The notes below the pieces were generated by a model. That model saw only the letters and a program-made list of their open reading frames with translations, was not told the DNA's origin and searched no databases. From contig NC_134032.1 in NCBI RefSeq assembly GCF_964204645.1, positions 9,536,275-9,600,274 on the forward strand: DNA of 64,000 nucleotides. Reading direction: 5' to 3'. This DNA is from Tubulanus polymorphus. Its lineage: Eukaryota > Animalia > Nemertea. Made by a program: the position numbers and the translations under genes. Positions within the stretch are counted from its first letter, which is position 1; each line of letters starts with the position of its first letter. Shown in pieces: positions 13,471 through 60,690 of the stretch.

Positions 13471-13666
13471 TCGTTACTGTTTTAAGTTTAGAAAAAAAAG
13501 AAACAAGGTTTGTAGATATGTATATAAAGAATAATAATGTACCGGTAATCACGTATTTTAGGGGAATCGGCGAAAAACAAATCACTGGTATAGTCTGACA
13601 TCCGAACCAAAAGATCTGTATGATCCCTTCAAATTGACCGATTTCAAGCCCACCTCTATATTAAGA

Positions 13667-14227: not shown

Positions 14228-14482
14228 TTATATGATGGTAAGTTGAGAGTGCTACTGTTCGAGCCCGGGACACCCCTGTTCATCCTCTGTTCTGTATCAG
14301 GACCATTCACAATCACTATCAAAAGACTATGTTCGAACTCAGGAGACCCCTGTATGTGTTTTAGGGATTCGAAACCTGGCGAAAGAACAAATCACAATTA
14401 TAGTCTGACACCCTAACCACTCAGCCATCAAAGTGATCTGTATGATCCCTTCAAATTGATCGATTTGAAACCTTACTCTATT

Positions 14483-33300: not shown

Positions 33301-36300
33301 AGGCGATGGAGCAGATGGTGGAGACAATAATGATGATGATAGTGATAGAGATGGTGATGGGCATGATGGGCGATGGTGGTGATGTATATGATGGTAATGT
33401 TATCCAGTCGTCTAGTAATCTAGTAAATCTAGTCATCTATTCCTCCAGTCGACCAGTATACCATGTCACATGTGTACAGTGCGTCTTCGAATCACGTCAA
33501 AATTAAAAACTGGATCACTACCAACGTAAGGAATATTCCCCAACACTCTTGCGCTATTACCCCATATTCTAAACTTGGGTCAGCTTGAACTCCGATTAGC
33601 GAGCTTCATTGCCCCATCATAAAAGTAAATGTACACTGTCCAGTGGATTATCATTTAACCGATTGAATGGCCTCATATTTCAATTGACCATGAAGAAAGT
33701 TAAGGACGACACATCTGTAGATCTTGTAGAAAAAGACGAAAAGGTGGTTGGTAACGCTGAGTATGGAGCTATAGATACCGTTAACCATTCTATTCATGCC
33801 GATTTCCAGTCTAAAGATACCGGTAACCAGTCTAAAATACAACCAAATAAGGAGCAATCATCATATATATTTTCTTGCCAAATCCGCCGTCGGGCAAACC
33901 CGGTTATCGTTTGTTTCGTTAGTCTTTCGGGGTTATCGTCAATATTTCATCAGGAACTTTACTACCTGTACTGAGTGAACTTCAAGATGGATTCCGCAAT
34001 AACTCGTTGTTTGCAGATCATCATATTGCCGAAGACGTGGCCATCACCAAAACGGTATTCGATTGTGGAATGGTGCTTGGAAGCGTTTTTCTGTGGTGGA
34101 TTGACATTTAAATATGGCAACGTATACCCGTTTTCTTTATTGGGCTCTCTAGGATTTATTCTAAATGCCGGATCGACGATGGTGTCATCTGAATTCAAAA
34201 ATGAAGGTAAAATAGCTATAGCATTGGCTATCGTGTACAGTCTAAAATATGCCGCTCCTGAAATTGGTTACACAAGCCGTTTGTACGAAATCAAACACGT
34301 CGACTATGCCGTATCTTTATTGATTCCATTCTGCGTCTTATTGATACTTATAGTAATATGCGCTTTCTTTAAACTAAATAATAAAGATGTAAAAAACCCG
34401 TACATGTTGAGCTGATCAAATCGATGTTGACTGATGCCCAAACGTTGGTAATATTCGGATTCAAATGTATTTAAACCATAAGTACAAATCTTCATTAAAT
34501 ATATATATGACATTGTTGATTGAGCAGGTCACATCCTGATGTAAAGCACTGGCAAATAAAGGTACACTTATACTGGGGCCGACGGCCATCAACCTTCTAG
34601 GCGCGAAACTATTTGGATTCATAGTGGCCAAAACTAAAAATTATCGTTGGGTTTATCTTATAATTTATTGTCTGATTACGGCAATTTCATTCGTTGCGTA
34701 TCCGTTCGTTGCAAATGTCTGGCAAGCATTAGGTAGCTCTATAATCTGTAACTTGTCGTTTGGGCTTGCGCTAGTTTTAGTTTTTCCTGGTTTTCGGATG
34801 TCGCCGATAAGAAGTTAGACAGTTATTATGAGACGATATACGCAATAGATACCACGGCATCACGCGTGGCATTAGTACTACTAACGTTAGTAGCCGGCGC
34901 CGTAGAACCACGCGATTTTTATAGGTGTCGGTGTTGAATTTCATCTACTTTTCTACGTCTTTTGCTGTTAGAGATATTTGAATTAATCCAGAGAGACCGT
35001 AGACCTCAGCTGAATTGTAGAAGAAATGAACGGTATATAACGAAGTAGAAATAAATTTACATTTGAACTTCAAGCCGATTTTTAATTTTCATTTAACTTT
35101 CATTAGAGTTAACATCAGGGCCCAATTACGCAGTCGTGACCAACTCTTAGTCTAAAAGACGCCAAACGTCGTCTATTCTAATATCGGTCTCGTGTTGTTA
35201 GATTGGCTTACCATCGCACGTGGCTTAAAACCGTTTCAACATGACCCGAGTATAATCATAATCTAACCTTGCTAGACAGATTCTATGGATTTGATACTTC
35301 CTCGGTTTTGACTATGACTCCCCGGATCGAATCAACATTTTCTACGGTCTTGATCGGTAGTCAGTTCGACAGACGATATGTCTTGTCTAACACACGAACA
35401 CTCCCCGATAGAAGCGGTGGGGCACGTGGACTTTTATACCAACATAGACAATACGCAACAGGTAAATATCCAAATTCGCAATTGCGCCCTGTACAAAAGC
35501 TCGAGTTAGGACCAATGTATTGCAATGATTCATCGAATGAACCTACAAATTTGTATTTCTAATTTCACCTCAAACAGATTTGCTGGTTAGGTCACCAGAT
35601 TACGCACAACTCGGCATCAAGGACACTTACTTTTCTGCTAATTGATTTCGATTGATGAGATGGTCTGTTGTTCAAGTCGCTCGAAATAAAGTTCAATGTA
35701 TCTTCTCCATTTAGGAAATCTTTGGTATATCTTTAGTCACGTGAACAGACGCGTGAAAGACTTTTTCAATTCGTTAACGCATTAGCGAGGATTTTTAATG
35801 CGTAGAATCCGCTTTATATGGAATCCACTAATGGATTTTGGTTTTAACTATGCGTGAACCTCGATCGGTAGCCAAATTACCACTGAGTGACACTATACGT
35901 ACACTGGAAATGTAGAAGTAGCTTCTGGAAGATGATTACTGATTGAAACTCGACAATCACAGGTGACGCTGTTACAAGTCACGTGTTTCAATCTCGTACG
36001 TGGCAGAACGTTGTTTGGTACGCGTTCAATGTTTACATCAGTAATAGGGGTAATAGGCTTTCAAGCCAAAGGTCGAACGGTCGAGCTCGTAAAAAATGAA
36101 AAACATAAAAATAATAACAATTTCTACTTGAATTACTCGCGAAACTCATAAAAATGAAAAATAAATTCTCACACGCTCGAATATATTTTTCATTTTTATG
36201 AGTTTCGCGAGTAATTCAAGTAGAAATTGTTATTATTTTCATGTTTTTCATTTTTTACTCACCCGCCCGTTCAACCTTTAGCTTGAAAGCTTATTACCCC

Positions 36301-39300
36301 TATTACTCTTAAAATATTCATATAAATGAATAACATTTAAATTGACAGATTATTCAATATAAAAGTGTAAGCTCTTATAGGATATATATATATATATAAA
36401 TAGTTATTTTATAAATTTATATTCATATGGAAATTGTAGTCTCAGTAATAATTTTGAACCTTTATTATTCTTTAATTTATTCATATATTCATCATGTAAT
36501 TCAGTAGGTATAATTTGATTTTCTTCCAATGATTGTTGCATAGATTTTCTATCTTTGTTATAAAATAAAACTAGAAATCTAATGTTTTCTCTAAAGTCTT
36601 TAACAATTGAATTATATTTTTGATTTAAAACCCATGTTGTTATCCCAAAATGTCACCGGAGAAAGCTAAATAACATAACTCACTTTCTCTAACTTTTGAA
36701 TCATGTAAATTTGCACAATCATCTATAATGAATAATGTATTTGATCCTTTATAAGTATCAATTGCTATTTTTATACAATTATCTAAATTTTCTTTTACTG
36801 TTTTAGGATTTAATATAATAAACTTTTTCATCTTAACTATATCTCTATTATATGTTTTATTCATTTCAGAAGTAGGACAGAATAATATTATATTATCAAA
36901 ATGATTCATATAAATAGTTTCTAACAAATCTAATATGAAATGTGTTTTACCACAATTGGTTACTCCAGTTATTAACATATTATGCGGTTCAAATATAAAT
37001 AAATCTTTATTCATTTATTCTTTTAATTTTACTAGATAAAATCCATTCATTAAATTTATCATCATATCCTTTATATTTCACCAAAGAATACTTTTTTCCT
37101 TTAAGAGTTTTTGTTTTCAATACTTTTTCTATTTTGTATTCTATTTCATCTGGATTTGGTACAAGTGATAATTCTTGTTCATAGAAATAACCTAATATTT
37201 CTTCATCTTTTAAATCTTCTAATTTATAAACAAATGGTTTAGTTAATATTATCTTTTTAATCTTGAATATTTCTTCAGTAAAATTTGGAGTATAACCTTT
37301 ATAAAAGGTTTTTCTATATTTAGATATTCTTACGTGTTGTCTTATTTTAAATTTAGGTTCTCCAAAATCATGTGTAACAAACGCACCATATAAATTATTC
37401 CATACTATTTCTGAATTATCTTCTTTTCTAGCTTGTATAGGTTTCATATTTATAGAACTATGTTTAGAATTATTATAACCTTTCACCAAATCATCTAACA
37501 CATCGATATATTTATATGTTTCATTAGCAGTAAAATATTTCCACATTCTAGTTTTCAATGTTTTATTAAATCTTTCTATAATAGATGCTTTTTTGTCTGA
37601 GTGTGTTGAAAAATATTTTACATCGTTATCAGATAATAGTTTTTTGAAATGTTTGTTATAAAATTCCTTACCTTCATCAAATTGTATCTTATCTGGAATA
37701 GCTTCTTTAAATATAGATTTAAAAGCATTTGTAACTTCTATTCCAGTTTTATTTTTGATTGGAATTGACCATGCGTATCGACTGAATATATCTATAACAT
37801 TCAGTATCCAGAAATATCCTTTGTTGTATTCTTCTAAGTTCTTCATGTCAATTAAATCTGCTTGCCATTGTTGATCGATATATGAAACCATAACTTTTCT
37901 TGTTAAATAAGTTTTATCCATTTTCTTGTGGATTTGATATGTTGGTTGATTTTGTAACCATGATTTCAATTCACTATATTTTATATTTTCATTATCAGAT
38001 TTAATTTTATTCCATAATTCTGAAACGTTAGAATATGATACTTCACTTTCTGGGTTATAATATAAATCTCTTAAATATTGTTCTTTTTTCATCTTATTTT
38101 AATCCATTAATAATAATTTAGATTTAGTTTCAATGACTTTATGATTTGACTTTTTTTCTGGTATGATAGGTTTACTGTCTGTACACGGATAACTAAGTTT
38201 CCGATTATCATTGGAATCATTATTGTTATAATCAGATTTATACTTATATTTATATATTACACCGGATAATATAATAACTGTTACTAATCCAATTGTAATA
38301 TATAATTTATAATTGCTTCCAGCATTAGAAGAATTAGATGGATTATTATTTGAATCAATATCAGATAATTTCTGTGATTCATTTATATCAGTTAATTTCT
38401 TTTTCTTAGCTTTTTTTAATTCTGAAGATCTTTTACCTAATTCTCTTGCCCATTTAATTTGTTTCTCGGATCTAGCCTTTTTCTTAACTCCATCACTCAT
38501 TTATTTTAGTTAATTTTTGTTCTGATTCATTTTCTGTTTCGACGTTTGGTTGTAGTACATCTGTTTCGTTCTTACCTGATTTATATTCCATAGGCTTGAT
38601 GTTCGAAAATGTTATGACGCCAGTAGAAATTAATGTCATAACCGATCCTAATTGAAATGAAGCATATCCAACCCATTTTTGTAATTCAGTCATAACTAAG
38701 TAGTCATTTTTCAAATCACTATATAATTTATTTTCATCATCAATTGGTATTAACTGGTTAAATAACTTAGAATAACATTTGACAATACCATTCGAAATAG
38801 AATCATTTATTTTAGCTAATCTAGCTTCTTCATAAATCTTAAAATATTTTATTACTTTATCTGGTTTCATAGAGTCTAGTTCTTGAAAAGTAATGATTCT
38901 ATTTAAAAACTCCTTAGATTTCCCGCCAGCAATTAATAATTCTAGATGGTGTTTACATGTTAAATAGTATTCATAATCTATATTGTTATTAACTTGAATA
39001 GAATTAGAAACAACTGTATCTTTATTATCACTAATACCCAAATCATCTAATGTCTTTTCAATATCAATACTATTCTTATTAGATTTCTTTGACATTTATA
39101 TTAGAGAAAAAAGCAAAAAAAAATATTATAAGTATTCTTCAAATGATACTAGCTAGTTAAAGGTAAAGAATTTTAGTATTAGTTATTGTTTTTTTAGTAT
39201 TTTTTATTTGTGATATAAAGTATTCTCTTTTGAAAAGAATTGTAAAAGAAAATATTAAAAATTAAAATAGAAATAATGGCTAGTTGAAGTTAATGTTTTT

Positions 39301-42300
39301 TAAATACTTTTTATTTAAAATCTATTTGATATCTCACTACTTTTGTTTATCTATTAGGAGCAGTAGTTATAACTGTCCAGATAAGTCATTTCGGATCCTT
39401 GATATCAAATTCCTCAACGTATTGTTCATTATTTGGATTATTGTTCCATTGATCAATAAATTTCTTTGCCTTTGTTAACTGTTCTAAATATAACTGTAAA
39501 TCTAGTTTATTAGATTTAATTATGTTTTCCTTCTTTTCTAAAGGTCTTAAATTCTTCCAACCCCAAATAAGTTTTTTATTGTATTCATCATTCATGTTAA
39601 ATTTAGATATTGGTAACACGTGATCAATATGGTAATAATCCCCATAATTATCTATATTCATTTTATCATCGAATTGAAATATAATCCATGATTTGAGAAA
39701 TTCATCTGAACAACCCAACACATTAGATAATGTTTCTGAATGTGTTTCTTTGTTGAATAATTGTGTTAATCTAGACCGTAAACATTGTTTCAATCTAAAA
39801 TTAAGATCTGTTTGATATCTTTCTCTCATATATTCCGCCATATAATAATTATAATGTTCTATATTATCTTCTCGATATTGTTTGGTATATAGTTTAGTAC
39901 AAGTTTTACAGCAATATTGAAAACCATCTTTGCTAATCTTACGCTTACTAAATTCTGTTAAAGCTAATTTATCTAATTCACATTTAGAACACTTCTTGTA
40001 GTATATGCTTATAACGCCAGTGTTATTTGTAATATTTATAGTTTGTGGTTGTTCTGGTTCCATTTATTATACATATTTTTTTACTAAATTGATTTTAGAA
40101 GTTATTCATTTATATGTTATTCATGAATACCTATGTATTAGATACCCTATTAGATACCCTAATACCTGATACCCTAATACCTGATACCCTATTAGATACC
40201 TTAAATACTTAAAACCCCCTTTTTTATTTACTATTATTTTATACAAATTTCAACTAATATTATTATTTGAGTTAAATATAATTAATATCTTAATCACTTT
40301 CACTATCAGACCCTAACAATTTATTCAAATGCTCTACCGAATCTACATCAATAGTTGTTTTATTTATGTTTCTATTTCTTTATTTTTATCAGTTCATTCT
40401 TTTCCTAAAGTTCTAATCTTAAAATCTCTTATACTTTTATCATGCGCAATTTTATCAGATGCATTTCTTATACTAATAATCTCTCTAATTGCTTTATCAG
40501 AAAATATATCTAAATCTTCTAATTCTTGATCTGTTGCATCAAGTAATCCATTCGGTAAAAGTTTTTCAATTGGAACTTTATTTGATTTAAGTTTACTATT
40601 TGTGGAAGTTATATTCTGTTCAGAAGTTGTTTCTGTTTCTGATTTCTTTTTGATTATTTCAAATAATTCATTAATTCTTTGTTTAAATACTTCTCTATTT
40701 TTATTCATTTCTGTTTGTGTTAAATATTCTTCTATATCATTAATATTACTTATTCTTCTAATTCTATCTGGATCTAAATCACTCAAAGTTGATTTTGTTA
40801 ATATTTTATTTTTATTATTTTTATGAGTGATTGCAATATAATAATCATCTTTCAAATGATAATAACATTTACCATTATCTAAAAATATTAATTGATCTGC
40901 TAAAGGTCCAACGTCTTCATCATTTATGTTAAGTTTAGATTTTTTAATTAAATCTTCTAATTTAGCTATTTTGTTTTCATTATCTAAATCTTCTTTTACT
41001 AAATATGGGTCTAAATTTTCAGGATCTAATTGTGATTCAGCATTTTTAATATAATCAGGCATATTTAAATTATTATTATATTCTGGGTCATTACCGTCAT
41101 TAAAACTTGTTTCATCAAAATCAGGTGGTTGTTCATCACTTATACCAGGTTCATCTAAAGGATCCAATGGAAAACCTTCTCCACCTTCTACATCCATTTA
41201 CATAATAAAAAAATTAAAATTTAAAATATAATATTCCTCCGATTACAATTCCTATACAAGTTAAAGCTAATTTAGTATTTTCATGGGATTTATTATCATC
41301 ATTAGTTTTAATTATATCATGTTGAATAATATCAGTTTTTATATCTTCTGATGTATTGTAATCTTTTATTTTAGAATCATTATTTAATTTAATATTATTA
41401 GTTTTAGTTTCAGTTGATTGAATATGTTTTTTATTTTTTTCACCTTCCATTAATTTTGGAGCAGTAATTATCTTTTTATTTATATCATTCAATCCAAATG
41501 AATTATTTATTGTTGCAGTTTTAATTAGATTATTATAACCAATTATGTTTCCCATCTTTAATACTAAATCATTAGAAATAATTAATAGATTAGGGCCTAT
41601 ACAATAATTTAATCTAATATGTGATTTATCTAAATAATTTTGATATCTTATAATGTTTTCTGGAATCGATCTATTTTTATCATTATGAATTGAATCTTCA
41701 AATAAAACTTTAAATTGTTTCTGTGTATCAAATGATGTATTCAAATTTCCAATTATCGGTGATCTTGTTTCAACTTGTGATCCTAGAATACAAATCAAAT
41801 AAGTTCTAATAGATTGATTTATTCTTTCTATACCTGATTTAGTAAAACCTTCACTATTTTCTAAAATAAAATAAACACAACCATTATTGTTTTCTTGTTT
41901 TAAATGATCATAAAATTTCGGTAATTTATTGAAATTTAATGTTTCTAAATCCTTTGTTTCTATTTTACCATAACCTAATTTATTATTATAGATATTATAA
42001 AAACTGTTAGATGGTATGGGAAGTGCACAATATTCTGCAACCTTTTTAGGGCAAGGAAGTGATCTTATTGTTCCAATTTTTGTTCTAAAATCAGAATTAT
42101 TTATATCTATATTAAATTCATTGCAAATTTTATAAAACTTAGATAAATTAATATTATTATCTAATTCTTTAAAATATCTTGATCCTGGTAAAGCGCACTC
42201 TAATTCATTTAGTATTATTCTGATTTGAAAGTATGTATGAAATCTAAATAAACTTTGAATTAGTTTATATTTAGAATTATTCAAATGATCATTCCAACTA

Positions 42301-45300
42301 ATTCCGCATCCTGTTTTTGCACAATAAACAGCAAAATCTAATTGGTTCTGCCAATACTTCATATTAGATTTTAATAACCATTGTTTTTCATCTTTCAATT
42401 TTTTTAAATTAATTAAATATACATGAAATATATTTTCCATCTTTGCATTAAAATTATTAGTTTCAGTAACATAAATTTCTAAATTAGTTAATGAATCTAA
42501 AACTTCATTTCTATATGTAATATCTTTATTAAAATCTATTGCTGGAATATTATATTTAATTGATTTATTATATTGGAAAGCTTTTGGAAAACTATCTACC
42601 ATTTATATAATTAAAAAATTAATAATTTATTAATTCTTTTAATAATTTATCTTGTTCTTCAACTGTTATATGGCCATTTAAACTTATTATATAATCTAGT
42701 GTATTCTTTAATTTATTAATTTCTTTTATATTAGTTTTAATTTTTTCTTTATTACTTTTTATATTTAATTTTGAACTTATACCGGTTAAAACACTTGAAC
42801 TTAATCCTAACACACCAATTGATATAGCTAAAGGTGTTAATGGACTGAATATTGCTAGAAATGTTATTACAGAACTAATTGTAACCGAACCACTTATAAT
42901 CAAATAATATATAATTTTACTTTTTAAATATTTTTTTCTTTTTTATCTTTAAGTCACTTTCAAATTCTAATATTTGTTTTTCTAAATATGTTTTTAATTT
43001 AGTTTTATTTATATCATGAGGAATGATATCAATACTATCAACTTTATCTTCCATTTATTTAGCAAAAGAATTACTAATTAGTAAACTTATAAGCAACAAA
43101 TATAACAATAACAGTTCCGCCTAAAATCCATATTATTTCATATTTCTGTTGTTCTTTACTTGGGGTATAATAATCTGATAATTTAGGTTTGTAAAGATGT
43201 AATTTTTCTTTATTTGTTACGGCGTTATATAAACTCATTGCATCATCAACTGATTGAAAATCTCTATGTGAAATCTTCAGATCATATAATTCTTTATTGA
43301 TGTAATCCATATAGTTTTGCCTCTTTTCTCTATATTCTTCTGCAGCTTTATTATATTTCTCTAACGCTAAGTTATGTCTTCTTTGTTCTCCTAATGAACT
43401 ATTTTGATCAATATGTTTAAATAAATATCCACCACCAGTAAATGCCAAAGTGTTAACAATTGCCGATCCTATAATAGTTATAATTGCAGAAGCCATTTAT
43501 TTAGCAAAAAAAATTACGCATTTATATGGGAGGAATATATTTTTGTTTTTCCAAATAATCAATTGTTAAATTAGATAAAGTAACTGCTAATGTTAATTTT
43601 AAGATATCATTTATATCAAATCTATCAACATTAACACTTCCCATTTTAAATACTTTTTTTAATACCATTGAATAACCAACAGTTCCAACTGATAGTAATG
43701 CGCCATTATATAATCCAGTTATTATCCACTTATTATCACTCATTTATTTATCAAAAAAATTACTATCATCAAAATATTTAGTTAACTTATTTATGATTAA
43801 TTCAACATTTATTTCATTACTACTTTTATGATTATCATATATTTCAATTATTATTTTTTTAATATCATCGATGATAAAATCTTCATCTAATTCGTAAAAT
43901 CTTAAAGATTCTCTAATTAAATTAGTAATCTTTTCTACATTTAAAGTTTCTTTATCTATTGTTGTTTCATACTCAAATGTTGTTTCATTAGAAAATGCAA
44001 TATTTTTAATATGTGTAATTACATCATTAACGTTAAATTTCATTTCTTTCTCACGTTTAAAATCAAATCCAAAACATATACTCGGTCCGACAGTTATATT
44101 CATTTATATAGTGAAAAAATTACTCTTTACATCTTATAACTAATTCATATATCACAGGAAAGTTATTCAAATCAATTAAATATCCATTATGATTTCTAAT
44201 TTCTAATTTAAAATTATTAAATTTAGGAATGCATGGTTTAAAATCACATTCTGTTAAATTATAATTTATTTGAGTTCCAAATTGTTTAACATTTTTTAGC
44301 GGTAAAATATTTAGTATACTAGAATTACAAATTGTTTCTTTAGTTGCTTCGAAAGTTTTTGTAGGCTCGATTAAATTGCAATAAATATAAAAGTGTGTAA
44401 AAGGTATTATATTTGAGCTGCCTTCTGCGTTTCCAGTAACTGTAAGCGGTTTAATTCCTAACATTTTAGCCAGTTAACAATTTATGTTGTTCATTAGATA
44501 TCTTTATTCTAATTTTATTAGTACTATCAATTTTATTAAATTTAATTTCAAATACAGAAGTGCCCCCGATTTTCAACCGAGCTCTTCTATTAATTTCCTG
44601 CGCTAATGATTCTAAATTATATAATCCTGGTTTTAAAAATATATGAAACCATTTATCCTTATTTCTCATATAAATCATAAACCCTCTATGTTCAAAAGTT
44701 TTATCCGATACATTGTAAAAAGAATTACATAAACTTATATTAACTAATTTTAAATCTACACAATTCTTAAATTCTCTATCTAATTGAACTAGTAAATTAT
44801 GAGATTTATAATTTGTCAGTTTTCTAGAATCTACAAATATTCTGTATTCTTTTAATTCCACCATTTATTTTACATATTTTCTTATTCGAAATCTATTTCA
44901 TGGTACCCTTTTTCATTCTTACCTTTGTATACGAAATAGAAATCTCCAGAACATAATTCTTCTAAATCTTCACTTGATAATCTATGAAATCTATCAGGTA
45001 AATATGTTCTGAATTTATATGTATTTCCTTTTAATCCTTCATATTCTAAGTGTATAACTAATTTATCTCCATAGTTATTAGTAACTGTATCAATATTTGT
45101 AATTAGATATGTCTTATGGATTGTTAATTCTGTTAACTTTTTGAATTTATAATCTACAGATTTTACATTTGTAGTATCTTTTATTCTATCTAGAAATGAT
45201 TTGTTGTTCTCACTGTGCGCTTGTTTACTCTCCATTTTAATAACATATTTTTTTTCCATAAAATTTGATTAACACGTTAGAATTCTTTTCATTATCTCGT

Positions 45301-48300
45301 TCTCTTTTGTTTCTTCTCTTTTAAATTTTAAGTATTCATCTAAATTACAACCATAAGCAACTGTATGAATTCCATCATCTAATATATATCGTTTATCATC
45401 AAATGGGTTTAGACTTATCTTTTCAATTTCTTCAATAAACATTTCATGATCTTCAGATCTTAAACATCTCATCTTATGTTTTCTAACTTCTTCATTGAAT
45501 ATACAATTTATGTAATCTTTGAAATGAATATTCTTTTCTACTACACTTTTGGTTATTCCTTTTAACTTTTTAGCTTCATGTTCTTTAGTTTTATATGAAT
45601 ACATTTTAGATCTAATACCGATGAATTCAATCATTTCTTCACCACCTAATTCATCTTTGAATTTACCGGGAACTTTTTTATTATCATTGCTAAACAATTC
45701 ATGATTTTTAGGATAATTACTAAAATCAAAATGATGTTTTAATGTTTTTAAATCATCTGTTATGTTATCAGTTTTTATCTTTAATATGTAAGAATCTGTA
45801 TCAAAATATAATATTTCTATATGTTTTTCTCCAAAAAGTGGTTGTAATACATTATAATAGAATTCATACATTAGTAATTTTGATAATTCTAAAACTGAAG
45901 CGCCAACATAGATTGGTTTATTAAATTTTATTGATGTTCTTCTCATTTTAACTGCGGCTAAATTTTCATCAAATATTCTGTTACCAATGAACTTAGGATA
46001 TGATTGTAAATGTCTAATTCTTTTACCATTACTGACTAACTCAATATCATTTCTATTTCTAATATTTTCACAAGTCTTACCATAGAATGCATTATTCATT
46101 AACTTGAAGAAATCTTTCTCGAAATCAGTTTTAGCTTTAGTTCTCTGTTTCGTGTTAAAATCTATATATTTTTCTTAGCACTTAGATTGACTGAATGAAA
46201 TATATCTATGTACTTTTTTTAGAACCATTCCTTGATTCAAATAAAACTTCAACATTCTATAATGTACTACATAATTATATTTATCTTCTTGAGTTACCAT
46301 TAACTTTTCTGTATGAATATGATTTTCGGGTTTAATTCTTTTTTGATAACTTGATAATTCTTCATGAGTTACAGTTTTATGTTCGGGACAGTAAGCTAGA
46401 TTTCTAGATTTAAATTTAATATGTTCAGGATATTCTAAATCTACAACAAAGAAGTAACCAGTATCTGAATCATCTGCAATATCTAGGATTCTTTTCTTCC
46501 AATCAAATTTATCATTATTTTCATTCTGTAAAACTTCAGTTAATTCAAATACTCCATAAGGTTGTGGTTCCATCATTGCCCAACCATACAAATTATTTGC
46601 ATCTATATATAATAACTTATATCCGGGGTTATCATTTACATTGAAATATCTATCACCTAATACACCTGAAACACCTCCTCTTATAGATTTTTCAAATAAT
46701 AATAATTGATCTATATTTGTTAACAAATCCATTTTTATATCTGTAAATTTTAATCCACAATCCCATGTTAATCCTGGTGATGAATAACAATGACAAGGAT
46801 CAATATTGAAATATTTTAGGTTTACATCTCTAAACCTTTCGAATATATCGGTTAATAATAATACATCTGATTTTAAACATAAATCTACTAATTGCCCATG
46901 ATTTTCTATTCTGAAATGATTCCAAATATTCAATGTTCTATTATAGACTTCATCTTTAACATATTCATTTTTTAATTCATCATAGAATTGTTCTTTTAAT
47001 AATTCAGTTATGTTAAAATCATTATGATTTTTATAGAAAGAATATGGAATTGCTCCTTTATATCTCATTAATTTAAAATCATCATTATTTGGGTAATATT
47101 CTTTTAATATCTTTAATTCATCATCAACTAATGATTTTGATAAGTTATCTAATGAACTATCTAAAAATCTATATGAATCTATAAATCTTAAACACCCAAA
47201 TTGGAATGATATATAATTCTCAGATGTTTTAGCTAACATTCTAAATTTATAAGTTGGTATTTTATCTTTTGATCTATTTGAATTTAATATTTCTATTTCA
47301 TTATTGATTTCTTCTATTTTATGGCATAACTGTTAGATAAATAAATGTGCATCATATCCTGATAGATTATGAAATATAACTGGTACAAAGTTAATTTTCT
47401 TAGCTTGTAAGTTACAATTCTCATGTGCAGCGCCTCTAAACTTTCCATTCAAATGATCATGGTCTCTTACTTTTTTATCTTTATAATTAAATATCTTTTC
47501 ACAATAATAACATTTACCTGCAAACGCAAATTCTTCTTTATCTTCTTCTGTCATTATAATTTCTATATTTGTATTCAATAATTTACTAAAACTTATTTCA
47601 TATTCAATTAATAAGTCACAAAAATGATTGATAACATTTTCATTTCTATAATGATAATATTCACTTTCAATTAGTTCTGGATAATCAGATTTTATATATA
47701 ACCCGAAAGCTGCGGCTGATTGATGAATCTTTTTAATAGTATTTGTTTTTGGTGGTTCTTCTGAAAAATCATTTTCATTAGAATTCAATTTTTTTCTTTT
47801 ATAATATATTTCTTTTCTATCTTGATCAGTTAATTCTTTATTCAATGATTCAAAATCTCCATATATGACAAATGGTACTTTATTTTTGTAATCATATTTT
47901 TTGAATTCTAATATTTTATCTTTTTCATTTGGTAAAACTAATTTACAATAATCAGGATTTTCACATAATTGTTTATGATTTAATAATGTACTTTCATTAC
48001 TAAATCTATGTGAACATTTTCTACAAAGATATATTTTATGGTGATCATTTTCTGATTTAAAAAATAAATCGATTTGTTTAATCCACATATAATGATTCTC
48101 ATAATATAGTATATCTATAACATCGTTTGAATCATAATCTTTTGATAGATATAAAGGTTCTAATGTATAATGTTTTATATTGTTACCTTTTGTATTTGGT
48201 AATTTGATTAAATCAAATACATTTATCTTTATATTATTATCTCTTTCTATTTTTGGGATGTCTTTAATTATAACAGGATACTTATCTATCTTATAATTAT

Positions 48301-51300
48301 TTTCAAATGGTTTATAATGAGTTAATCTAAAACTATGTTGTTTATAATCTTCAACTGGGTGTAAAAAACTTTTTATAGCCCATAGAAAACATTTATTATC
48401 AAAATTTTGTAAATTTATTACAGCATTAGTTTTAAATGGTAGTTTAATATAACTTGATGCTTCAATATCAGGTTCTTTATAATATGATAAATTGTTTTCA
48501 TCTATTGGTTTCGATTTAGTTAACTTATTATATTTTGTGTTATAAACATGTAAAGTCATAAATATTATTTCATCAAATATTAAACCAGATCCTTCAAAAT
48601 ATTTCTCTTCTATTTTAGTTTTTACTTCATTATAACATTTATCTAATTTATCATCTATATGTTGTTTTGAAATAATATGTTGTGAATGAGAATTTATATT
48701 ATATATTGGTTTATCTTCAGATTTTATAAACTTTACTTTAGAAGATATACTAATTTTAGGATATTCAACATCTGTAATTATTTTTATTATTTCTTTCATA
48801 TTTTCTAAATGTTTTTTATTTTCTTCTAATGTTTTTCCTTTATGAAATTTAAACTCGATAGCTGCTGGACCAATATCACTTTTAAATGCTTCGGTTATCT
48901 CTATATCTTTTTTATTATCTAATGAATTAATATAATTTCTTACATCTTCCATGTATGGTCTTTTATTGTTTAATTTATTTTTTATGCTTTTAATTGTCTT
49001 CTGTTTCTTATCGTTATCATTATCAAAATAATCTTCACCTAAAATATCATTATTCTTATTTCTAATATGACTTATAGATTTTAAATGTTCTTTATAATAT
49101 CTTTTATCACTGAATGATTGATTACATGTATCACATTTGTATGTTTCTTTTTCATTCTTTAATTCATCTAATTTAGTTTCTAATATATCATCTTCATATT
49201 CTAGTTTCAATTTATTCTCTAAATGTGTTTTAGTTTTATTGTGTCTTGCTTTTTGGGATTTATCTATATTGATATTACATGTTGGGCAGTAGTACTTATT
49301 TGCTTCCATTTTAATACTAAATTTTTTATTAAAATTGATTTTAGAAGTTCAATGATTTAAATGTAATTCATTTATATGAATATTTTAAGAGTAATAGGGG
49401 TAATAGGCTTTCAAGCTAAAGGTTGAACGGGCGGGTGAGTAAAAAATGAAAAACATGAAAATAATAACAATTTCTACTTGAATTACTCGCGAAACTCATA
49501 AAAATGAAAAATAAATTCGAGCGTGTGAGAATTCATTTTTTTCATTTGGCTCGAATACTGTACTCAGCTCGTTGTTTTAATGATCACAAACAGCGCTATA
49601 AATTTTTTCATATATATCGCGAATTTGAAGTCATTTCGCGACGAACTGGTGCGCATTGTGAAACTATGATTATATTCTAACGATGTATTAGGATGTTTAA
49701 AACCTCAAAACCACGTGCACAGTATTTGATTACCGAAACGACGGTATCAATGACTGATCCAAGAGGTCAAGCGTATAGCATAGAAATAAAAATGAAAACA
49801 AGCCCAGAATAACCAAAGGCACAAAACCCGTAACATGGTTCCGAAATCTATGCCGCACATTGCTACGCGTAATGGGCAACTGCCCATTCGTTTTCGCGTG
49901 CGTCACATGTGAAGAACGTAAGGAGCATTTTGTCGGTTAATCCACGAGCAATCATCTCAAGATGATCGTTCGTATAAGGGTTAATATACAGTCAACCTCC
50001 AAAACACCACCGTACTCTAAATACTGTGTAAATCCCAGACCAGCAATGTGAGCAGTTCAACTGTGAAAAAATCCGATAACATTTACTCGAATAAAAAATT
50101 GTCTAATTTCATAGTTACATAATAGCTTTACTGACCACTGGGATGTGCGTTGGATGATATTGGTGGTAAAAGTTACTATACATGATGAGCGACTTGTTAT
50201 CGAGGGCACTAACAACTACTAAATGATTAAGAGAGATGGTTCGAAATGAATAATACTCCTTCCCGTTTAAAAAGTAAATCGATTTCGCTAGAAATAGGGA
50301 TTTTAATGCATAAACTCTGCGTTTACGAAACTGGTTTGGTTACCAATTAGATTCGCTGTTAAGAAGTGCTAGCTAATGGGTAATCGGAGAAGGTTCCAAA
50401 AAAATCACACTGGAATAGAAAGCATTAGCCTCTGGAAGATGACAGTTACTGGAACAAACTCGACGGACGATGTCACAAGTCACGAGTTTCAATCTCGTAC
50501 GTGGCAGAACGTCGTTTGGTACGCGTTCAATGTTTACATCTATTTCTGGATGGTGACCGGTGTTACCGGGGGTTTACTGTCCATAGTCGTCTTGTTTCGT
50601 CTGCGTCGCACGTTAGACGCGTGCACCTTCCAGTATCTGGTACCGCTATGTTTTTCGGATTCTATTTTCGTTATCACTTATTCGCTGAAGTCTCTGGAAC
50701 GAATTCGCATCGTGACCGGCAATTCTCATGATCAGTACGTATTCTACGCCGTTAATGAAGTCACGTGCAAACTGGGTATGGTGCTCATCAATTTCGGAAT
50801 CAAAAGCTCGTCGTGGATTCTGTTGTGTTTTGCCGTGGAACGCAGTTTAGCGGTACTGATTCCTTTGCGCATCAGGAGATTGGTGACCCGGGTTCGACGC
50901 CGGAATCTAATTATATCGGTTCTTCTTTACTACGCCGTAACGGAAGGCGCTCAGGGAATCACCTTCCATGTTAAAACCCTCGGACATGGCTTAAAAAACT
51001 GCCAAACAAACACCGTTTCAGAAATTATGACACGAATAATTATAATCTATTCCTTCTTAACCATGACTATAATTCCTTGGATTAGTTTGATATTTTCGAC
51101 GGTTGTAATTAGTATTCAGTTCACCAGACGAGATGTCCAGTTCAAAAACACTAACATTTCCGAACAGGAACGCAGATGCGTACGAAATCTAATTTGCATA
51201 ATCGTTGCCTTTTTCGTATTGAACGCACCGAATACTGTACTCAACTTGTTGGACTATACAAGTGAGAAACTGGGGCATTTACCAAGACAAATAGAACATT

Positions 51301-54300
51301 TGATGCACCTTATCGGGGGTGTTTTAATGATCACAAACAGCGCTATAAATTTTTTCATATATATCGCGAATTTGAAGTCATTTCGCGACGAACTGGTGCG
51401 CATTGTGAAACTATGATTATATTCTAACGATGTATTAAGATGTTTAAAACCTCAAAACCACGTGCACAGTATTTGATTACCGAAACGACGGTATCAATGA
51501 CTGATCCAAGAGGTCAAGCGTATAGCATAGAAATAAAAATGAAAACAAGCCCAGAATAACCAAAGGCACAAAACCCGTAACAAGGTTCCGAAATCTATGC
51601 CGCACATTGCTACGCGTAATGGGCAACTGCCCATTCGTTTTCGCGTGCGTCACATGTGAAGAACGTTAAGGAGCATTTTGTCGGTTAATCCACGAGCAAT
51701 CATCTCAAGATGATCGTTCGTATAAGGGTTAATATACAGTCAACCTCCAAAACACCACCGTACTCTAAATACTGTGTAAATCCCAGACCAGCAATGTGAG
51801 CAGTTCAACCGTGAAAAAATCCGATAACATTTACTCGAATAAAATATTGTCTAATTTCATAGTTACATAATAGCTTTACTGACCACTGGGATGTGCGTTG
51901 GATGATATTGGTGGTAAAAGTTACTATACATGATGAGCGACTTGTTATCGAGGGCACTAACTATTCTATAAAATGATTAAGAGAGATGGTTCGAAATGAA
52001 TAATACTCCTTCCCGTTTAAAGTAAATCGATTTCGCTAGAAATAGGGATTTTAATGCATAAACTCTGCGTTTACGAAACTGGTTTGGTTACCAATTAGAT
52101 TCGCTGTTAAGAAGTGCTAGCTAATGGGTAATCGGAGAAGGTTCCAAAAAAATCACACTGGAATAGAAAGCATTAGCCTCTGGAACATGACAGTTACTGG
52201 AACAAACTCGACGGACGATGTCACAAGTCACGTGTTTCAATCTCGTACGTGGCAGAACGTCGTTTGGTACGCGTTCAATGTTTACATCTATTTCTGGATG
52301 GTGACTGGCGTTGCGGGGGGTTTACTGTCCATAGTCGTCTTGTTCCGTCTGCGTTACACGTTAGACGCGTGCACCTTCCAGTATCTGGTACCGCTATGTT
52401 TTTGCGATTCGATTTTCGTCATCACTTTTTCTTTGAAGTCTCTGGAACGAATTCACATCGTGACCGGCAATTCTCGTGGTCAGTACGTATTCTACGCCGT
52501 TAATGAAGTCACGTGCAAACTGGGTATGGCGCTGATAAATTTCGGAATCAAAAGCTCTTCGTGGATTCTGTTGTGTTTTGCCGTAGAGCGCAGTTTAGCG
52601 GTGCTGATTCCTTTGCACATCGGGAGGCTGGTGACCCGGGCTCGACGCCGAAATCTTGTTATATCGGTTCTTTTTTACTACGCTCTAACGGAAGGCGCGC
52701 AGGGTTACACCAACCACGTTAAGACCATCGGACATGGCTTAAAAAACTGCCAAATAAACACCGTTTCAGAAATCATGACACGAATAATCTTAATCTATTC
52801 CTTCCTAACCATGACTATACTTCCTTGGATTGGTTTGATATTTTCGACGGTTGTGATCAGTATTCAGTTCACCAGACGAGATGTCCAGTTCAAAAACACG
52901 AACATTTCTGATCAGGAACGCAGATGCGTACGCAATCTGATTTGCATAATCGTTGCCTTTTTCGTATTGAATGCACCGAATACTGTACATATCTTGGTCG
53001 CCTATACAAGTGACAAACTGAAGCACCTGCTACCTCAAATAAGACATTTAATAACCCTTATCGGGACCGTTTTAATGATCACAAATAGTGCTGTAAATTT
53101 TTTCATATACATCGTGAATTTGAAGTCATTTCGAGAAGAACTGGTGCGCGTAGTGAAACTACGACGAAAGTGAATCGGTTAGACCAGGTTTTTAGTCGAC
53201 GTCGTCCTCGTCATAAAAAATATGTTGAAAAATAGACGTTTTTGCATTTTGATTCAACTCCCCTAAATTCATATTTGATCGTGGTAAAATGACACAATAC
53301 TTGATATTGATAGAAATGACGCTACATCTCGTGAAAACGTGTCTGATATTTAGTGTCTAGTGTCTAGTGTTTGATGTTGCCACTGAAAAGTGAAAGTGGA
53401 ATTACGCGCACTCACCGGGAATCGAACCCGGGTCTTGCACATAGAAAGCAAGCGGGCTAACTAGAAGACCGAAAGAGCTAGTGCACCTGGCCAGTGGTAC
53501 AGCTTGTCCAAAACCCTTCATCCAGCCCTGGAGGTGGTTGTATCGACAGCGATCTCCGTCGCTCTACGATCTTATCGTACCCATCTGTGATAAGATCAGG
53601 CGCTATAAGGTTCTCGGTGAATTTGGCCCAAGCTATGATTACTGAAAAATAATTATATTCTTGTTTTTCGTTGAATGAACGCAGGAATTACGAAGAGCTT
53701 CGTTGCGAGGGTCTCGACAAATTGATCAAGAGCCGTCTGCGAGCAGGGGAGAAAATCGCTTTTACCGTACGGCAAAATGATGGAACGTGTGATCGTGTTA
53801 CACGATTTAAACGTCACGGCTCCGTTCATTGAAGACGTCGCCATAGCTGACGATTCACTTTGAAGTGAAAATGAAAACAAACCCAAAAATAACCTAAGGC
53901 AAAAAACCGTATCAAGGTTTCGAGTTCTACGCCGCACATACGACTGTCCCTTCGTTTTCGCGTGTGCCACATGTGAAGAACGTTTAGGAGCATTTCTAAT
54001 CATCGGTTGATACGCAGTCAACCTGCGACACACCATCGTACTCTCAATACTGCCGAAATCCTACATCATCAATGTGGACAGTGTATCGGGGTTAGGCTGT
54101 GATGTAATCCGATAACTTTTACCCAAATAGAAAATTGTCTAATTTCATAATTACATCACAGATTTGCTGGCCACTTGGAAGTCCGTAGGATGAGGAGGGT
54201 GGTAAAATATAGCAGGGTTTAGTAGAGTTTTACGTCCCCAACTGCAAATAACAGTTAGTATATCCCAATAAGTGGGTCTTAAGAGACGGCCAGGGCCTTT

Positions 54301-57300
54301 TTTATAGGTTGTTATCACTACTCACAACCTGACTAAGTTAGCAGAGCTTAGTCCATGTATGTGCACGGACAACTAACACCAGAGTGGGTTTCGGACCAGG
54401 GATCTCTTGGTTCCCAGTCCTCGACTGGGCACTTACCATTCTACAAATGATTAAGAGAGATAGTCTGGTTCGAAATGAATAATAATCTATGTATCTCCCC
54501 ACTAAAGTGTAAATCTATTTCGCTAGAAATGCTTTTTCGCTTTTAAATACATAAACTCTGCGTTTTCGAAACTGGTTTGGTTACCAATTAGATTCGCCGT
54601 TAAGAAGTGCTAGCTCAAGGGTAATGGAAGAAGGTTTTAAAACATTGACGTAATTAATAGTGACGTACACTGGAATAGTTAGCATTAGCCTCAGGAAGAT
54701 GACAGTTACTCGAACAAACTCGACGGACGATGTCACAAGTTACGTGTTTCAATCTCGTACGTGGCAGAACGGTGTTTGGTACGCGTTCAATGTTTACATC
54801 TATTTCTGGATGGTGACCGGTGTTACCGGGGGTTTACTGTCCATAGTCGTCTTGTTTCGTCTGCGTCGCACGTTAGACGCGTGCACCTTCCAGTATCTGG
54901 TACCGCTATGTTTTTCGGATTCTATTTTCGTTATGACTTATTCGCTGAAGTCTCTGGAACGAATTCGCATCGTGACCGGCAATTCTCATGATCAGTACGT
55001 ATTCTACGCCGTTAATGAAGTCACGTGCAAACTGGGTATGGTGCTCATCAATTTCGGAATCAAAAGCTCGTCGTGGATTCTGTTGTGTTTTGCCGTGGAA
55101 CGCAGTTTAGCGGTACTGATTCCTTTGCGCATCAGGAGATTGGTGACCCGGGTTCGACGCCGGAATCTAATTATATCGGTTCTTCTTTACTACGCCGTAA
55201 CGGAAGGCGCTCAGGGAATCACCTTCCATGTTAAAACCCTCGGACATGGCTTAAAAAACTGCCAAACAAACACCGTTTCAGAAATTATGACACGAATAAT
55301 TATAATCTATTCCTTCTTAACCATGACTATAATTCCTTGGATTGGTTTGATATTTTCGACGGTTGTAATAAGTATTCAGTTCACAAAACGAGATGTCCAG
55401 TTCAAAAACACTAACATTTCCGAACAGGAACGCAGATGCGTACGAAATCTAATTTGCATAATCGTTGCCTTTTTCGTATTGAACGCGCCGAATACTGTAC
55501 TCAGCTTGGTTAACTATACAAGTGACAAACTGAAGCACCTGCTCCCTCAAATAAAGCATTTAATAAACCTTATCGGGGCCGTTTTTATGATCACAAATAG
55601 TGCTGTAAACTTTTTCATATATATCGTGAATTTGAAATCCTTTCGAGACGATTTGGTGCGCGTAGTGAAACTACGACGAAAGTGAATCGGTTAGACCAGG
55701 ATTTGAGACGACGTCGTCCTCGTCATAAAAAAGATGTTGAAAATTAGAGGTTTTTGCATTTTGATTCAACTCCCCTAAATTCATATTTGATCGTGGTAAA
55801 ATGATACAATTCTTGATATTGATAGAAATGACGCTACATCTCGTGAACAAGTGTCTGATATTTAGTGTCTAGTGTCTAGTGTCTGATGTTGTCACTGGGT
55901 GGGTGGTCTAGGAGTCTCGCGTTATCACGCATGCATGGCCGCTTCGTGAATATGGCAATGGCTCTTATTAATGATTGAGAAAAGTGACAGTGGAATTACT
56001 CGCACTCACCGGGAATCGAACCCGGGTCTTGCACGTAGAAAGCAAGTGGGCTAACCAGAAGGCCGAAAGAGCTAGTGCACTTGGCTAGTGGTGCAGCTTA
56101 TCCATAACCTTCACCTAGTCCTGGAAGTGGTTGCATCCACAGTGATCTCCGTTGCTCTACGGTTTAAGCGTACCCAGCTGTGGTAAGATCAGGCACTAAG
56201 GTTCTCGGTGAAATTGGCCCAAGCTGTGATTACTGAAAAAAATTCTATTCTTGTTCTTCGTTGAATGAACGCAGGAATTACGAAGAGCTTCGTTGCGAGG
56301 GTCTCGACGAATTGATCAAGAGCCGTCTGCGAGCAGGGGAGAAAATCGCCTTACCTTACGGCAAAATGATGGAACATCTGATCATGTTACACGATTCAAA
56401 CGTCACGGCTCCGTTTATCGAAGACTTGGTCGCCATAGCTGACGATTCACTTCGAAATATCAGGCATGTCTGAAAAAATAAATCGCAAAATCAGATTACA
56501 AGGTTGTTCTAAAACATCGAAATTTTCAACGTGTATCTAAAATTTGAAATCATTTTTTAAATCTTTGTCTTGTAAAATGTAAAATAGAAATATGAAATCG
56601 CTGAATGAAGTGATTAGATTCAAAATCTAAGAATTCTGTTTTCTAATGATAGCTGAATCGTAGAATATAACTTCTAACATATTAGCTCAACTTTCTCCAA
56701 TAATACTCTCGGTTTTGTCATTAGTTTAAATCTTGATTCGCCGGTGGTCGTGTTGGGAGACGCCTCCGCATCGATGGAAGTGGCCATCAGAACAGCGACG
56801 ATCATTTCGAGCCTTTTGACCGCCGTGTGCTCGGCGAAACTTGTGTTCTTCAACACAGTCAACATGGAGCCTCCTTTCCTACCGAAAACCATCGCCGAGG
56901 TTAGTGCGTTACCGCCTAGATACGGGATCTGGACGAATAGCTATATCTTTAGATCCTATAAGTTAAGCTCTCTTCGTATGCGAAGTGAATCAAGTCTCGG
57001 TACCTATCCCCTCAGAAAACCCGCTGATAGACCCTACAGACAATGTGCTGTTTGTACCCACCTTTCAGCCGATCTGTTGCATGAACCAATTTCAGACGCT
57101 CGCGGTTGTCTATCGAACACCCGTCAGAATATCTACGGTACAGTAAAACCCCTCGCACCGCCGTCTTATACACCCGTTCAGACAATCTAGGGCCGGTTGC
57201 TCAAAAGTTGGTTAAAGTTCCTAACCAACTTTTGACCAACCTGGCCCCTACTGTCTTAAACCCTTAAATCTATCGCCATCCTTACAAAAAATGATTGTCC

Positions 57301-58533: not shown

Positions 58534-58777
58534 ATCTGCCGCAGCCTATATTGAGCCGGTCCGAACTATCTATGCAGGATGTAAAACACTGAACTCTAAG
58601 ATGCTTATGGTCTGTTTTAGCGATGTATGCGCCTAATCCCCCAAATATTACTTGACTGATCCAAATCCTTTCAAATTCGGGGCTTGATGCAACAGAAAAA
58701 TGGATATGTATCAAAAGATTCGTGTACGTTTGTACCAACTGTTATGAAAAATTCGCTCAATGCTTCGACCATCTGTA

Positions 58778-60539: not shown

Positions 60540-60690
60540 TATCAGGTACCATTTCCAACACCTTTAACTTGTATTACGCCCTAATTTCAGAGCTCTAATC
60601 TAAAGTTTATTGGAAATAAAGTTTGTAAAAGTAAAGTTATGTAAAGTTTAATTTCACTAAGAGAGATTGATCGAGTAAATGTCGACCCCA

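Follow-up and report, generated by a model that had tools for sequence, protein, structure and literature searches.

TAAATG gene starts resembling poxvirus late promoters in a polinton-like element of the nemertean Tubulanus polymorphus

The stretch of DNA analysed here (the window) comprised 64,000 nucleotides of the Tubulanus polymorphus genome (contig NC_134032.1, positions 9,536,275 to 9,600,274). A polinton-like element of approximately 13.5 kb with a GC content of 0.24 was found between position 36040 and about 49540 of the window. An interrupted protein-primed family B DNA polymerase (PolB), an rve integrase, an A32-like ATPase, and terminal inverted repeats (TIRs) were present as polinton hallmarks (Table 1). 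The two TIRs matched over 186 nt with 98% complementarity. The outer 267 nt of the left TIR (36041-36307) formed a near-perfect palindrome with a predicted hairpin of -113 kcal/mol (z -25), and the right end, which was checked for a target-site duplication, was truncated. In run X5, 1343 reads exited the element at 36040 into dissimilar flanks, and the read depth relative to the flank indicated an approximately 58-fold multi-copy family. Many insertion sites were seen, amounting to dozens of nuclear insertions. The window copy itself is a decayed relic. PolB, the ATPase, the minor-capsid-like gene, and the gene starting at 43054 were broken, and the major capsid gene carried by relatives was absent. 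A rearranged spacer was found at its place, and the joint 36342/40103 was recovered in 447 reads.

Table 1 Features of the element in the window.
Feature	Position	Strand	Start context	Basis or remark
Left TIR	36040..36342	.		Inverted-repeat search
A32-like packaging ATPase, two frames, broken near 36650	36404..37014	-	TAAATG, A-rich upstream	Pfam Pox_A32, E 4.7e-7
rve integrase with C-terminal chromodomain	37007..38092	-	TAAGATG	Pfam rve, E 1.2e-9
133-aa protein, hydrophobic segment	38099..38500	-	TAAATG, overlapping end of upstream gene	
200-aa conserved family protein	38493..39095	-	T-run, TAAATG	
HNH / endonuclease VII-like nuclease	39386..40063	-	TAAATG	PHROG 1035, E 8e-16
Rearranged spacer: short tandem repeats and stretch like inner TIR end	40064..40393	.		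At relatives' major-capsid position (L002 gene order)
267-aa 5' part of gene (448-485 aa in relatives)	40394..41197	-	T-run, TAAATG	
462-aa family marker protein, C-terminal hydrophobic anchor	41214..42602	-	T-run, TAAATG	
Two-helix membrane protein gene, two frames	42619..43054	-	T-run, TAAATG	
140-aa conserved protein, hydrophobic ends	43074..43496	-	T8, 6 nt, TAAATG	
73-aa conserved hydrophobic protein	43522..43743	-	T7, 6 nt, TAAATG (TAA = upstream gene's stop)	
119-aa orphan	43744..44103	-	T-run, TAAATG	Only in TAAATG clade
Putative minor capsid (penton) gene, two frames	44120..44864	-	TAAATG, A-rich upstream	Weak DUF5901, E 0.004
117-aa protein	44882..45235	-	TAAAATG	
PolB, protein-primed, N-terminal zinc fingers and endonuclease VII-like domain	45269..49309	-	TAAAATG	
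Right TIR, outer part missing	49355..49540	.		Followed by host receptor-gene sequence

The window ATPase was 78-82% identical to that of L002, the closest related element. PolB contained two in-frame stops (47335 and 46177), and its C-terminal piece aligned to the PolB of L024 (E 5e-24), which itself matched Pfam DNA_pol_B_2. The label of minor capsid in Table 1 is our assumption from gene position and family pattern, and the 117-aa protein is possibly, by resemblance, a DNA-binding accessory of replication; alignment with the L002 ortholog backed its start at 45235 over the first Met at 45259. The L002 counterpart of the two-helix membrane protein gave a weak SLATT-like match below the cut-off (E 0.0013). 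The 462-aa protein had no Pfam or PHROG match and no usable Protein Atlas match, and was ruled out as a capsid by its C-terminal anchor and the separate capsid gene of relatives. The 119-aa orphan had four matches among 1.84 billion representatives and was found in four AT-rich clade members; domain and structure searches, the latter with a low-confidence model, revealed no recognisable domain, and the best PDB match, poxvirus H5, was not significant (E 0.17), so that an identification of the orphan as H5-like was rejected. The major capsid protein of L002 was modelled with a pLDDT of 73.9 and gave a Foldseek match to the PBCV-1 capsid (E 7.9e-15). Pfam scans of the window and L002 proteins, the largest of which covered 36 of 99 ORFs with most already assigned genes and antisense frames set aside, gave no family match for an adenovirus-type cysteine maturation protease; hence, the element was classed as polinton-like rather than as a canonical Maverick-Polinton.

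A preliminary description of the window had proposed that its genes start at poxvirus-type promoters, with the ATG lying inside TAAATG in 11 of 14 co-oriented genes. At all 11 starts, read on the minus strand, TAA indeed immediately precedes the ATG, and the three deviating starts read as described (TAAAATG at 45235 and 49309, TAAGATG at 38092). The integrase is an exception within the window, as its L002 ortholog begins at TAAATG; a baculovirus-type TAAG signal, which would occur only at this gene, was accordingly rejected. The proposed enrichment over other ATGs was evident: TAAATG was found at 11/14 starts and at 21/307 other minus-strand ATGs (Fisher p=4.9e-10), or at 21/249 when only ATGs able to carry an upstream TAA, i.e., out-of-frame and intergenic ones, were counted (p=4.4e-9). 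Intergenic gaps were as short as had been noted, with 10 of 13 under 30 nt, and overlap of stop and start accounted, as stated before, for 43743 only (one of 13 junctions; one of 12 in L002). Within genes, TAAAT was not depleted (93 versus 82.7 and 87 versus 87.6).

The pattern was repeated in related elements. In six contigs with a GC content of 20-44%, TAAATG was present at 32 of 36 starts, and in the remaining four TAAAT ended 2-3 nt before the ATG; together with the window, the exact motif was found at 43/50 starts. All 15 genes of L002 carried it, and the L009 homolog of the HNH / endonuclease VII-like nuclease likewise began at TAAATG. In the GC-richer relatives L007 (GC 0.38) and L009 (0.44), the motif was exact at 5/7 starts and within reach at 7/7, compared with 3 and 4 of 256 other ATGs, respectively. 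When starts were assigned by homology alone, TAAATG headed 23 of 26 de-duplicated clade starts versus 1 of 225 outside the clade. The motif was also present where the preceding gap measured 290-330 nt and at genes that come first. Head-to-head pairs in L002 (-10981/+11054) and L009 (-3516/+3581), where no upstream gene ends, carried it on either side. Position -3 was a purine at 190/225 starts outside the clade and T inside it. Sister clades had a different positioned word, TTGAA, which appears to resemble early promoters of large DNA viruses, suggesting that helper promoters vary across the family. In quick trees with midpoint rooting only, the capsids of L002 and L009 formed one clade (SH-aLRT 95), and the tree of the 462-aa protein did not resolve L007 and L009 with the group of the window. 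No relatives were found in a viral contig collection searched with three query sequences, nor in a genome contig collection.

Upstream of the motif, the seven T-runs noted before (starts 39095, 41197, 42602, 43054, 43496, 43743, and 44103) were recovered with a criterion of four or more T in -20..-9. TTTT began at -16..-12 in 26 of 42 starts versus 5.1 in shuffles. The spacer between T-run and motif was 6 nt in 12 starts, 7 nt in 4, and 8 nt in 9 (25/42 in all), 10 of the 42 had no T-run within 40 nt, and a T-run was also seen at 7/55 non-start TAAATG sites. In published poxvirus late promoters, TAAAT(G/A) is preceded at a distance of 5-7 bp by a T-containing core (PMC5294985), a layout that the clade starts match. 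The polyadenylation signal AATAAA was not avoided in coding DNA (50 versus 48.4 expected in the window, with 14 inside the PolB span; 65 versus 62.3 in L002); L009 showed no excess (0 versus 1.9), so that this argument rests on the AT-rich members. TTTTTNT was depleted in coding DNA (3 versus 10.2; 5 versus 10.5), and its avoidance as the poxvirus early terminator was dismissed because A5 and T5 runs were equally depleted.

Neither base composition nor stop-start overlap nor poly(A) signals can account for the TAAATG starts. The reading of these starts as promoters is well supported by the fixed phase, the T-run, the conservation across 20-44% GC, the head-to-head use, the T at -3, and the coding DNA rich in poly(A) signals. 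The absence of an own RNA polymerase, as had been claimed, agreed with our results: four Pfam scans (17, 10, 9, and 36 proteins) yielded neither an RNA polymerase domain nor a transcription-factor domain for the window copy, which has a deletion, or for L002, which ends inside PolB. From this and the promoter evidence, we infer dependence on a helper. The promoter part of the preliminary description thus stood, and its further parts, a poxvirus-like helper, transcription in a virus factory, and silence of integrated copies until infection, are hypothetical. Pfam, structure, and kinase searches linked none of the clade's genes to poxviruses; for the deoxynucleoside kinase of L002, no viral names were among the matches. 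A scan of viral contigs for the promoter pattern gave at least 120 scattered single matches, of which, among the matches listed, 28 opened a frame and none was recognised by eye as poxviral.

The best explanation, to which we assign a probability of about 0.6, is that the element, like a virophage, depends on a helper and is transcribed by a polymerase of poxvirus type. TAAATG with its T- or A-rich stretch is likely the initiator for such a polymerase from a co-infecting helper, and the clade would then live as an integrating hyperparasite on a poxvirus or a close relative. As in vaccinia, the polymerase would read TAAA directly and start on the A's, and slippage would add an untemplated 5' poly(A) leader (PMC5294985, PMC12917281, PMC6211774), so that the T at -3 may never be part of the mRNA. 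Each gene would need a promoter of only 16-30 nt, able to sit in the tail of the preceding gene. By analogy with mavirus, the rve integrase would insert copies in the nucleus, and these would await infection by the helper for their expression, for copying by the protein-primed polymerase, and for packaging. Counted against this reading were the three deviating window starts, polymerase and integrase included, the undepleted TAAAT in genes, the T-runs missing at some starts and present at non-start sites, the lack of a helper or of any poxvirus-traced gene, the unresolved 462-aa tree, and the reported expression of coral polintoviruses in general in ordinary transcriptomes (PMC11131425). Separately, the 58-fold depth and the many insertion sites require repeated entry to the germ-line nucleus, which has to be explained for an element with a cytoplasmic helper.

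The motif by itself does not name the helper, because yeast cytoplasmic virus-like elements likewise initiate at TAAAN and show slippage (PMC6211774). The polymerase could thus belong to another large DNA virus lineage or to a cytoplasmic linear plasmid-like element starting at TAAA; ranavirus DNA polymerase promoters contain TAAAT (PMC5294985), and the TTGAA of sister clades fits such a variety of helpers. We consider this unlikely, as the full layout of T-run, about 6 nt, and TAAAT fused to the start codon is a described feature of poxviruses, many conserved genes of salmon gill poxvirus retain TAAATG, and the initiators of African swine fever virus (TATA-type), mimiviruses (AAAATTGA), and CroV (TCTA) differ. 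Somewhat less likely still is an autonomous nuclear virus whose nearly leaderless mRNAs are started at or near TAAAT by host RNA polymerase II, perhaps with an element-encoded activator. The dozens of nuclear insertions, the orphan that accompanies the motif in the four AT-rich members, and the TATA-like word in TATAAATG, which is read at about half of the starts, would suit it. However, at the textbook TATA-to-start spacing, transcription from a TATA box joined to the ATG would begin inside the gene. In addition, a T at -3, where sister clades retain a purine, makes a poor context for nuclear initiation, AATAAA is tolerated in coding DNA at 4-6 per kb, and the orphan, as the candidate activator, has no recognisable domain.

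It is improbable that the motif serves the translation or processing of a polycistronic message, whether by stop-start coupling, as an upstream poly(A) signal, or as a trans-splice acceptor. The genes are co-oriented and tightly packed, and 19 of 37 TAAATG starts read AATAAATG and thus contain AATAAA; nevertheless, the other half read TATAAATG or similar, upstream stops supply the TAA at single junctions, the motif persists at distant, first, and head-to-head genes, and no AG acceptor is conserved (AG in the last 12 nt of 7/50 starts). A by-product of the 76% AT composition might have been expected from the chance occurrence of the pattern in AT-rich viral DNA, as in the contig scan above. This explanation is refuted by the internal-ATG controls (p 5e-10), by the GC-richer members that keep the motif, and by outside loci of less than 40% GC, which had TAAATG at 0/18 starts despite upstream DNA equally rich in AT (0.86 versus 0.83).

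Among known systems, poxvirus late and intermediate promoters share TAAAT(G/A) at the start codon and the T-containing core (PMC5294985, PMC12917281, PMC4542343); those of the intermediate class have a TAAA initiator with an AT-rich core, and both kinds are compact enough to overlap neighbouring genes. Unlike in poxviruses, the motif here, known from sequence alone, lies on an integrating element of 13-16 kb without RNA polymerase and heads nearly all genes, including those of replication. Mavirus and endogenous Cafeteria virophages have in common protein-primed PolB, rve integrase, TIRs, nuclear integration, and a late promoter of helper type (10.1101/068312), whereas the present element has an animal host, another capsid lineage, no detected protease, and a poxvirus-type instead of a CroV-type motif. 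Gezel-14T / PgVV likewise has co-oriented genes, a helper promoter motif, and integrated relatives (10.1101/2022.07.28.501842), and its reported early motif AAAATTGA resembles the TTGAA of the sister clades; it differs in its algal host, Mimiviridae-type helper, tyrosine recombinase instead of rve, and a motif before only five genes. Polinton-like viruses from entomopoxvirus occlusion bodies, one of them integrated in a beetle chromosome, have been proposed as poxvirus hyperparasites, and carry the adenovirus-type protease without rve, the reverse of what was detected here (PMC11296320). Maverick-Polintons and adintoviruses share PolB, rve integrase with chromodomain, A32 ATPase, TIRs, and many copies in animal genomes and, with the relatives of the window element only, the double jelly-roll capsid (PMC8502044; 10.64898/2026.06.19.733378); the present element differs by a membrane-type protein set with no detected maturation protease, and by the loss of the capsid gene in the window copy. 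Yeast pGKL1/2 are also AT-rich linear elements with poxvirus-like promoters, but have their own RNA polymerase, no capsid, and no integration (PMC6211774).

Promoter sharing is thus already known for mavirus and Gezel-14T, as are poxvirus-associated polinton-like viruses, the latter without promoter data (the word promoter does not occur in the text of PMC11296320). In the main texts searched, which included few subscription papers, we found no report of poxvirus-type promoters in an animal polinton. We tentatively propose that this widespread protease-less family of invertebrate polinton-like elements could play in animals the part of endogenous virophages, with every clade carrying the promoter of its own helper, poxvirus late here and early-type TTGAA in the sisters. 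Whether animal Polintons multiply on their own in the nucleus or need a larger virus has yet to be settled, and their virions have not been observed (10.64898/2026.06.19.733378). A poxvirus-type promoter throughout a clade means that reporter constructs of 30 bp and the mapping of 5' ends could address this, and it leads one to expect a poxvirus-like virus in a host for which none has been named. If the proposal is true, the promoters point to undiscovered poxvirus-like viruses of the host animals. An inducible defence against viruses could then reside in the dozens of germ-line copies, and animal germ lines might harbour antiviral elements of virophage type.

TAAATG was found at 11 of the 14 gene starts of the polinton-like element in the window and at 21 of its 307 other ATGs (p = 4.9e-10), and the enrichment was also observed when the control was limited to ATGs free to carry an upstream TAA (p = 4.4e-9). 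The observation of TAAATG starts made in the preliminary description was confirmed, and the short intergenic gaps reported there were recovered (10 of the 13 were shorter than 30 nt). The TAA was the stop codon of the upstream gene at one junction, as stated there. The seven T-run starts described earlier were found among the 14, mostly upstream of membrane-type or unknown genes, and an A-run was present upstream of the ATPase, the nuclease, the minor-capsid-like gene, the polymerase, and two others. The A-type assignment recurred for three genes in the relative L002 and did not for the others, and the two types possibly, though weakly, correspond to late and intermediate classes.

The comparison was extended by scanning metagenomes with the 462-aa marker protein of the element; of at least 546 loci that were confirmed, the best 80 were used. 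Four relatives (L001-L004) were close to the window copy, with 67-69% identity and a GC content of 0.20-0.23; the GC contents of the two further members of the clade, L007 and L009, were 0.38 and 0.44, respectively. Among the members with a capsid gene, the capsid tree grouped L002 with L009 (SH-aLRT 95), and the placement of L007 and L009 with the close group was not resolved in the marker tree. L002 was near complete, had TAAATG at all 15 gene starts, and carried a major capsid gene whose modelled product matched double jelly-roll capsids. The repeat across related elements proposed in the preliminary description showed that the motif was kept: exact TAAATG was present at 32 of 36 starts in the six relatives, curated from ORF lists except for L004:1458, which had been chosen from a motif list and whose inclusion is circular reasoning, and the other four had TAAAT 2-3 nt ahead of the ATG. 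For an unbiased count, starts were assigned via protein homology. TAAATG was then found at 23 of 26 de-duplicated starts in the clade and at 1 of 225 outside it (0 of 18 in AT-rich outsiders); the usual purine at -3 was observed in 190 of the 225.

Several ordinary explanations were considered. Base composition fails as the cause, because the motif persists in the GC-richer members and is lacking in AT-rich outsiders. Coupling of stop and start codons and an upstream poly(A) signal were both rejected, since the motif also occurs where the preceding gap is long and at both genes of head-to-head pairs (L002 and L009), and a splice acceptor was rejected because no conserved AG was present at the starts. 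Nuclear transcription of the element is disfavoured; AATAAA was not avoided in the coding DNA of AT-rich members, which speaks against it.

The position profile of 42 starts showed A at -18/-17, T at -15 to -10, and a conserved TAA at -3 to -1. TTTT beginning at -16 to -12 was present in 26 of the 42 starts versus 5.1 in shuffles, and the spacer between the T-run and TAAAT was 6 nt in 12 starts, 7 nt in 4, and 8 nt in 9, the run being absent in 10. According to the accessible parts of the cited papers, the poxvirus late promoter consists of a T-containing core of approximately 20 bp, followed by 5-7 bp and TAAAT(G/A) (review, PMC5294985), and PMC3741161 lists elements of late promoters with this layout. 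The same sources indicate that the TAAA initiator is read directly by the vaccinia polymerase (PMC12917281), that slippage at TAAA yields 5' poly(A) leaders (PMC6211774), that a fish poxvirus also retains TAAATG (PMC4542343), and that the initiator of African swine fever virus differs (PMC7163114). Counting against a strict reading, a T-run was also present at 7 of 55 non-start TAAATG sites, and TAAAT was as frequent within element genes as expected; TAAAT inside vaccinia genes is likewise reported to be as common as expected (PMC12917281, accessible part).

Four Pfam scans, of 17, 10, 9, and 36 proteins from the element and its relatives, detected no RNA polymerase or transcription factor, in agreement with the earlier claim that the element lacks its own RNA polymerase. 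Given this and the motif, a poxvirus-type helper supplying the polymerase in trans would be the simplest account, in which all steps past the motif itself are ones that we infer. We estimate a probability of about 0.6 that a poxvirus-type helper polymerase transcribes the element, and consider it quite probable that some helper-supplied viral polymerase does so. The account is weakest on which virus the helper is, because searches that included comparisons of the L002 kinase and the clade-specific 119-aa protein turned up no gene derived from poxviruses, and because TAAA initiators also occur outside poxviruses. The poxvirus-like helper of the preliminary description was partly supported, by the promoter layout but not by any poxvirus-derived gene.

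As proposed, the element would work like an endogenous virophage. In the accessible texts, mavirus is described as silent until infection and as relying on the late promoter of CroV (10.1101/068312), whereas Gezel-14T relies on the early promoter of PgV (10.1101/2022.07.28.501842). Polinton-like hyperparasites of entomopoxviruses have already been published (PMC11296320); their gene content is unlike that of the element, and the accessible part of that paper contains no promoter analysis. The word "promoter" was absent from the accessible texts on adintoviruses (PMC8502044), coral polintoviruses (PMC11131425), PLV classification (10.64898/2026.06.19.733378 and 10.64898/2026.10.13.758929), and egoviruses (10.1101/2024.03.23.586382). 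Our literature search found no report of poxvirus-type promoters in animal polintons in the accessible texts; supplements may hold sequences of the family.

The element encodes a protein-primed polymerase, an rve integrase with a chromodomain, an A32 ATPase, an HNH/endonuclease VII-like nuclease, a candidate minor capsid protein, and conserved proteins with hydrophobic segments. Its location within an array of receptor genes shows that the host is an animal. The window copy is decayed, with two stops in the polymerase, three genes split over two frames, and one gene truncated. It lacks a major capsid gene, as well as the deoxynucleoside kinase gene of L002, the closest near-complete relative among the loci listed. 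A maturation protease was not detected among the proteins scanned, and the element was therefore not classed as a canonical Maverick-Polinton. The database entries for the family capsid (P0027, P0039, and P0075) are annotated either as hypothetical proteins in genome bins of bacterial symbionts or, in the sea slug Elysia marginata, as a major capsid protein, which suggests that the bins contain host DNA and that the family is widespread in marine invertebrates.

Coordinates of the element, its surroundings, and side features in related loci
Sequence	Positions	Strand	Feature	Remark
Window	36040 to ~49540	-	Element, AT-rich island	GC 0.21-0.26 vs 0.35-0.46 in flanks; inverted repeats at both ends; all genes on this strand
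Window	36041-36307		Outer terminal repeat	267-nt near-perfect palindrome
Window	35870-36039, 49541-55685		Tandem array of single-exon rhodopsin-family receptor genes	Element inside one unit, central part of which is missing (read by eye); 7tm_1 E 4.7e-18
Window	9830-10783		Further receptor-like frame
Window	12072-15033		Cluster of 150-250-nt inverted repeats	Probably left over from DNA transposons of the host
Window	58776-60541		522-nt inverted repeat pair (95%)	Probably left over from DNA transposons of the host
L002	10340-10981	-	Deoxynucleoside kinase gene	Pfam dNK E 1.7e-31
L014	9967-13359	-	Superfamily-1-like helicase gene	Sister-clade member; gene located where PolB lies in L024
L022	9279-12458	-	Superfamily-1-like helicase gene	Sister-clade member; gene located where PolB lies in L024

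Read evidence from the DNA run X5 covered window positions 34200-42800, where the depth of the element had a median of approximately 58 times that of the flank (range, 6-85). Most reads on the element were 90-99% alike, and 1343 reads ran from its left end into unlike flanks; together with the high depth, these reads indicate that the family is integrated at many sites. Several read joints spanned the centre of the terminal palindrome; a free genome end with this palindrome could fold into a long hairpin. Position 36342 was joined to 40103 on opposite strands in 447 reads and the depth fell at 40227-41087, indicating that the nuclease gene adjoins a terminal repeat in many copies. The copy in the window may therefore have arisen by rearrangement or as a chimera, with 40064-40393 and 36342 as the sites concerned.

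In two large GC-rich sister clades (within L011-L080), TTGAA was found at a fixed distance upstream of the starts, with peaks at -40 to -36 and -30 to -26. It was present within -45 to -24 in 31 of 99 and 27 of 54 de-duplicated starts versus 3.1 and 2.6 in shuffles, respectively, and one of these clades had TATA at -12 to -4 in 26 of 54 starts. The TTGAA word is similar to early promoters centred on TGA, as found in poxviruses, mimiviruses, and yeast elements. Its reverse complement was enriched in one sister clade, and TTGAA itself was mildly enriched within sister-clade genes too (z 3.8 and 5.3), so that it counts as a lead. If the TTGAA signal is real, the entire family may depend on helpers, each clade having its own promoter type.
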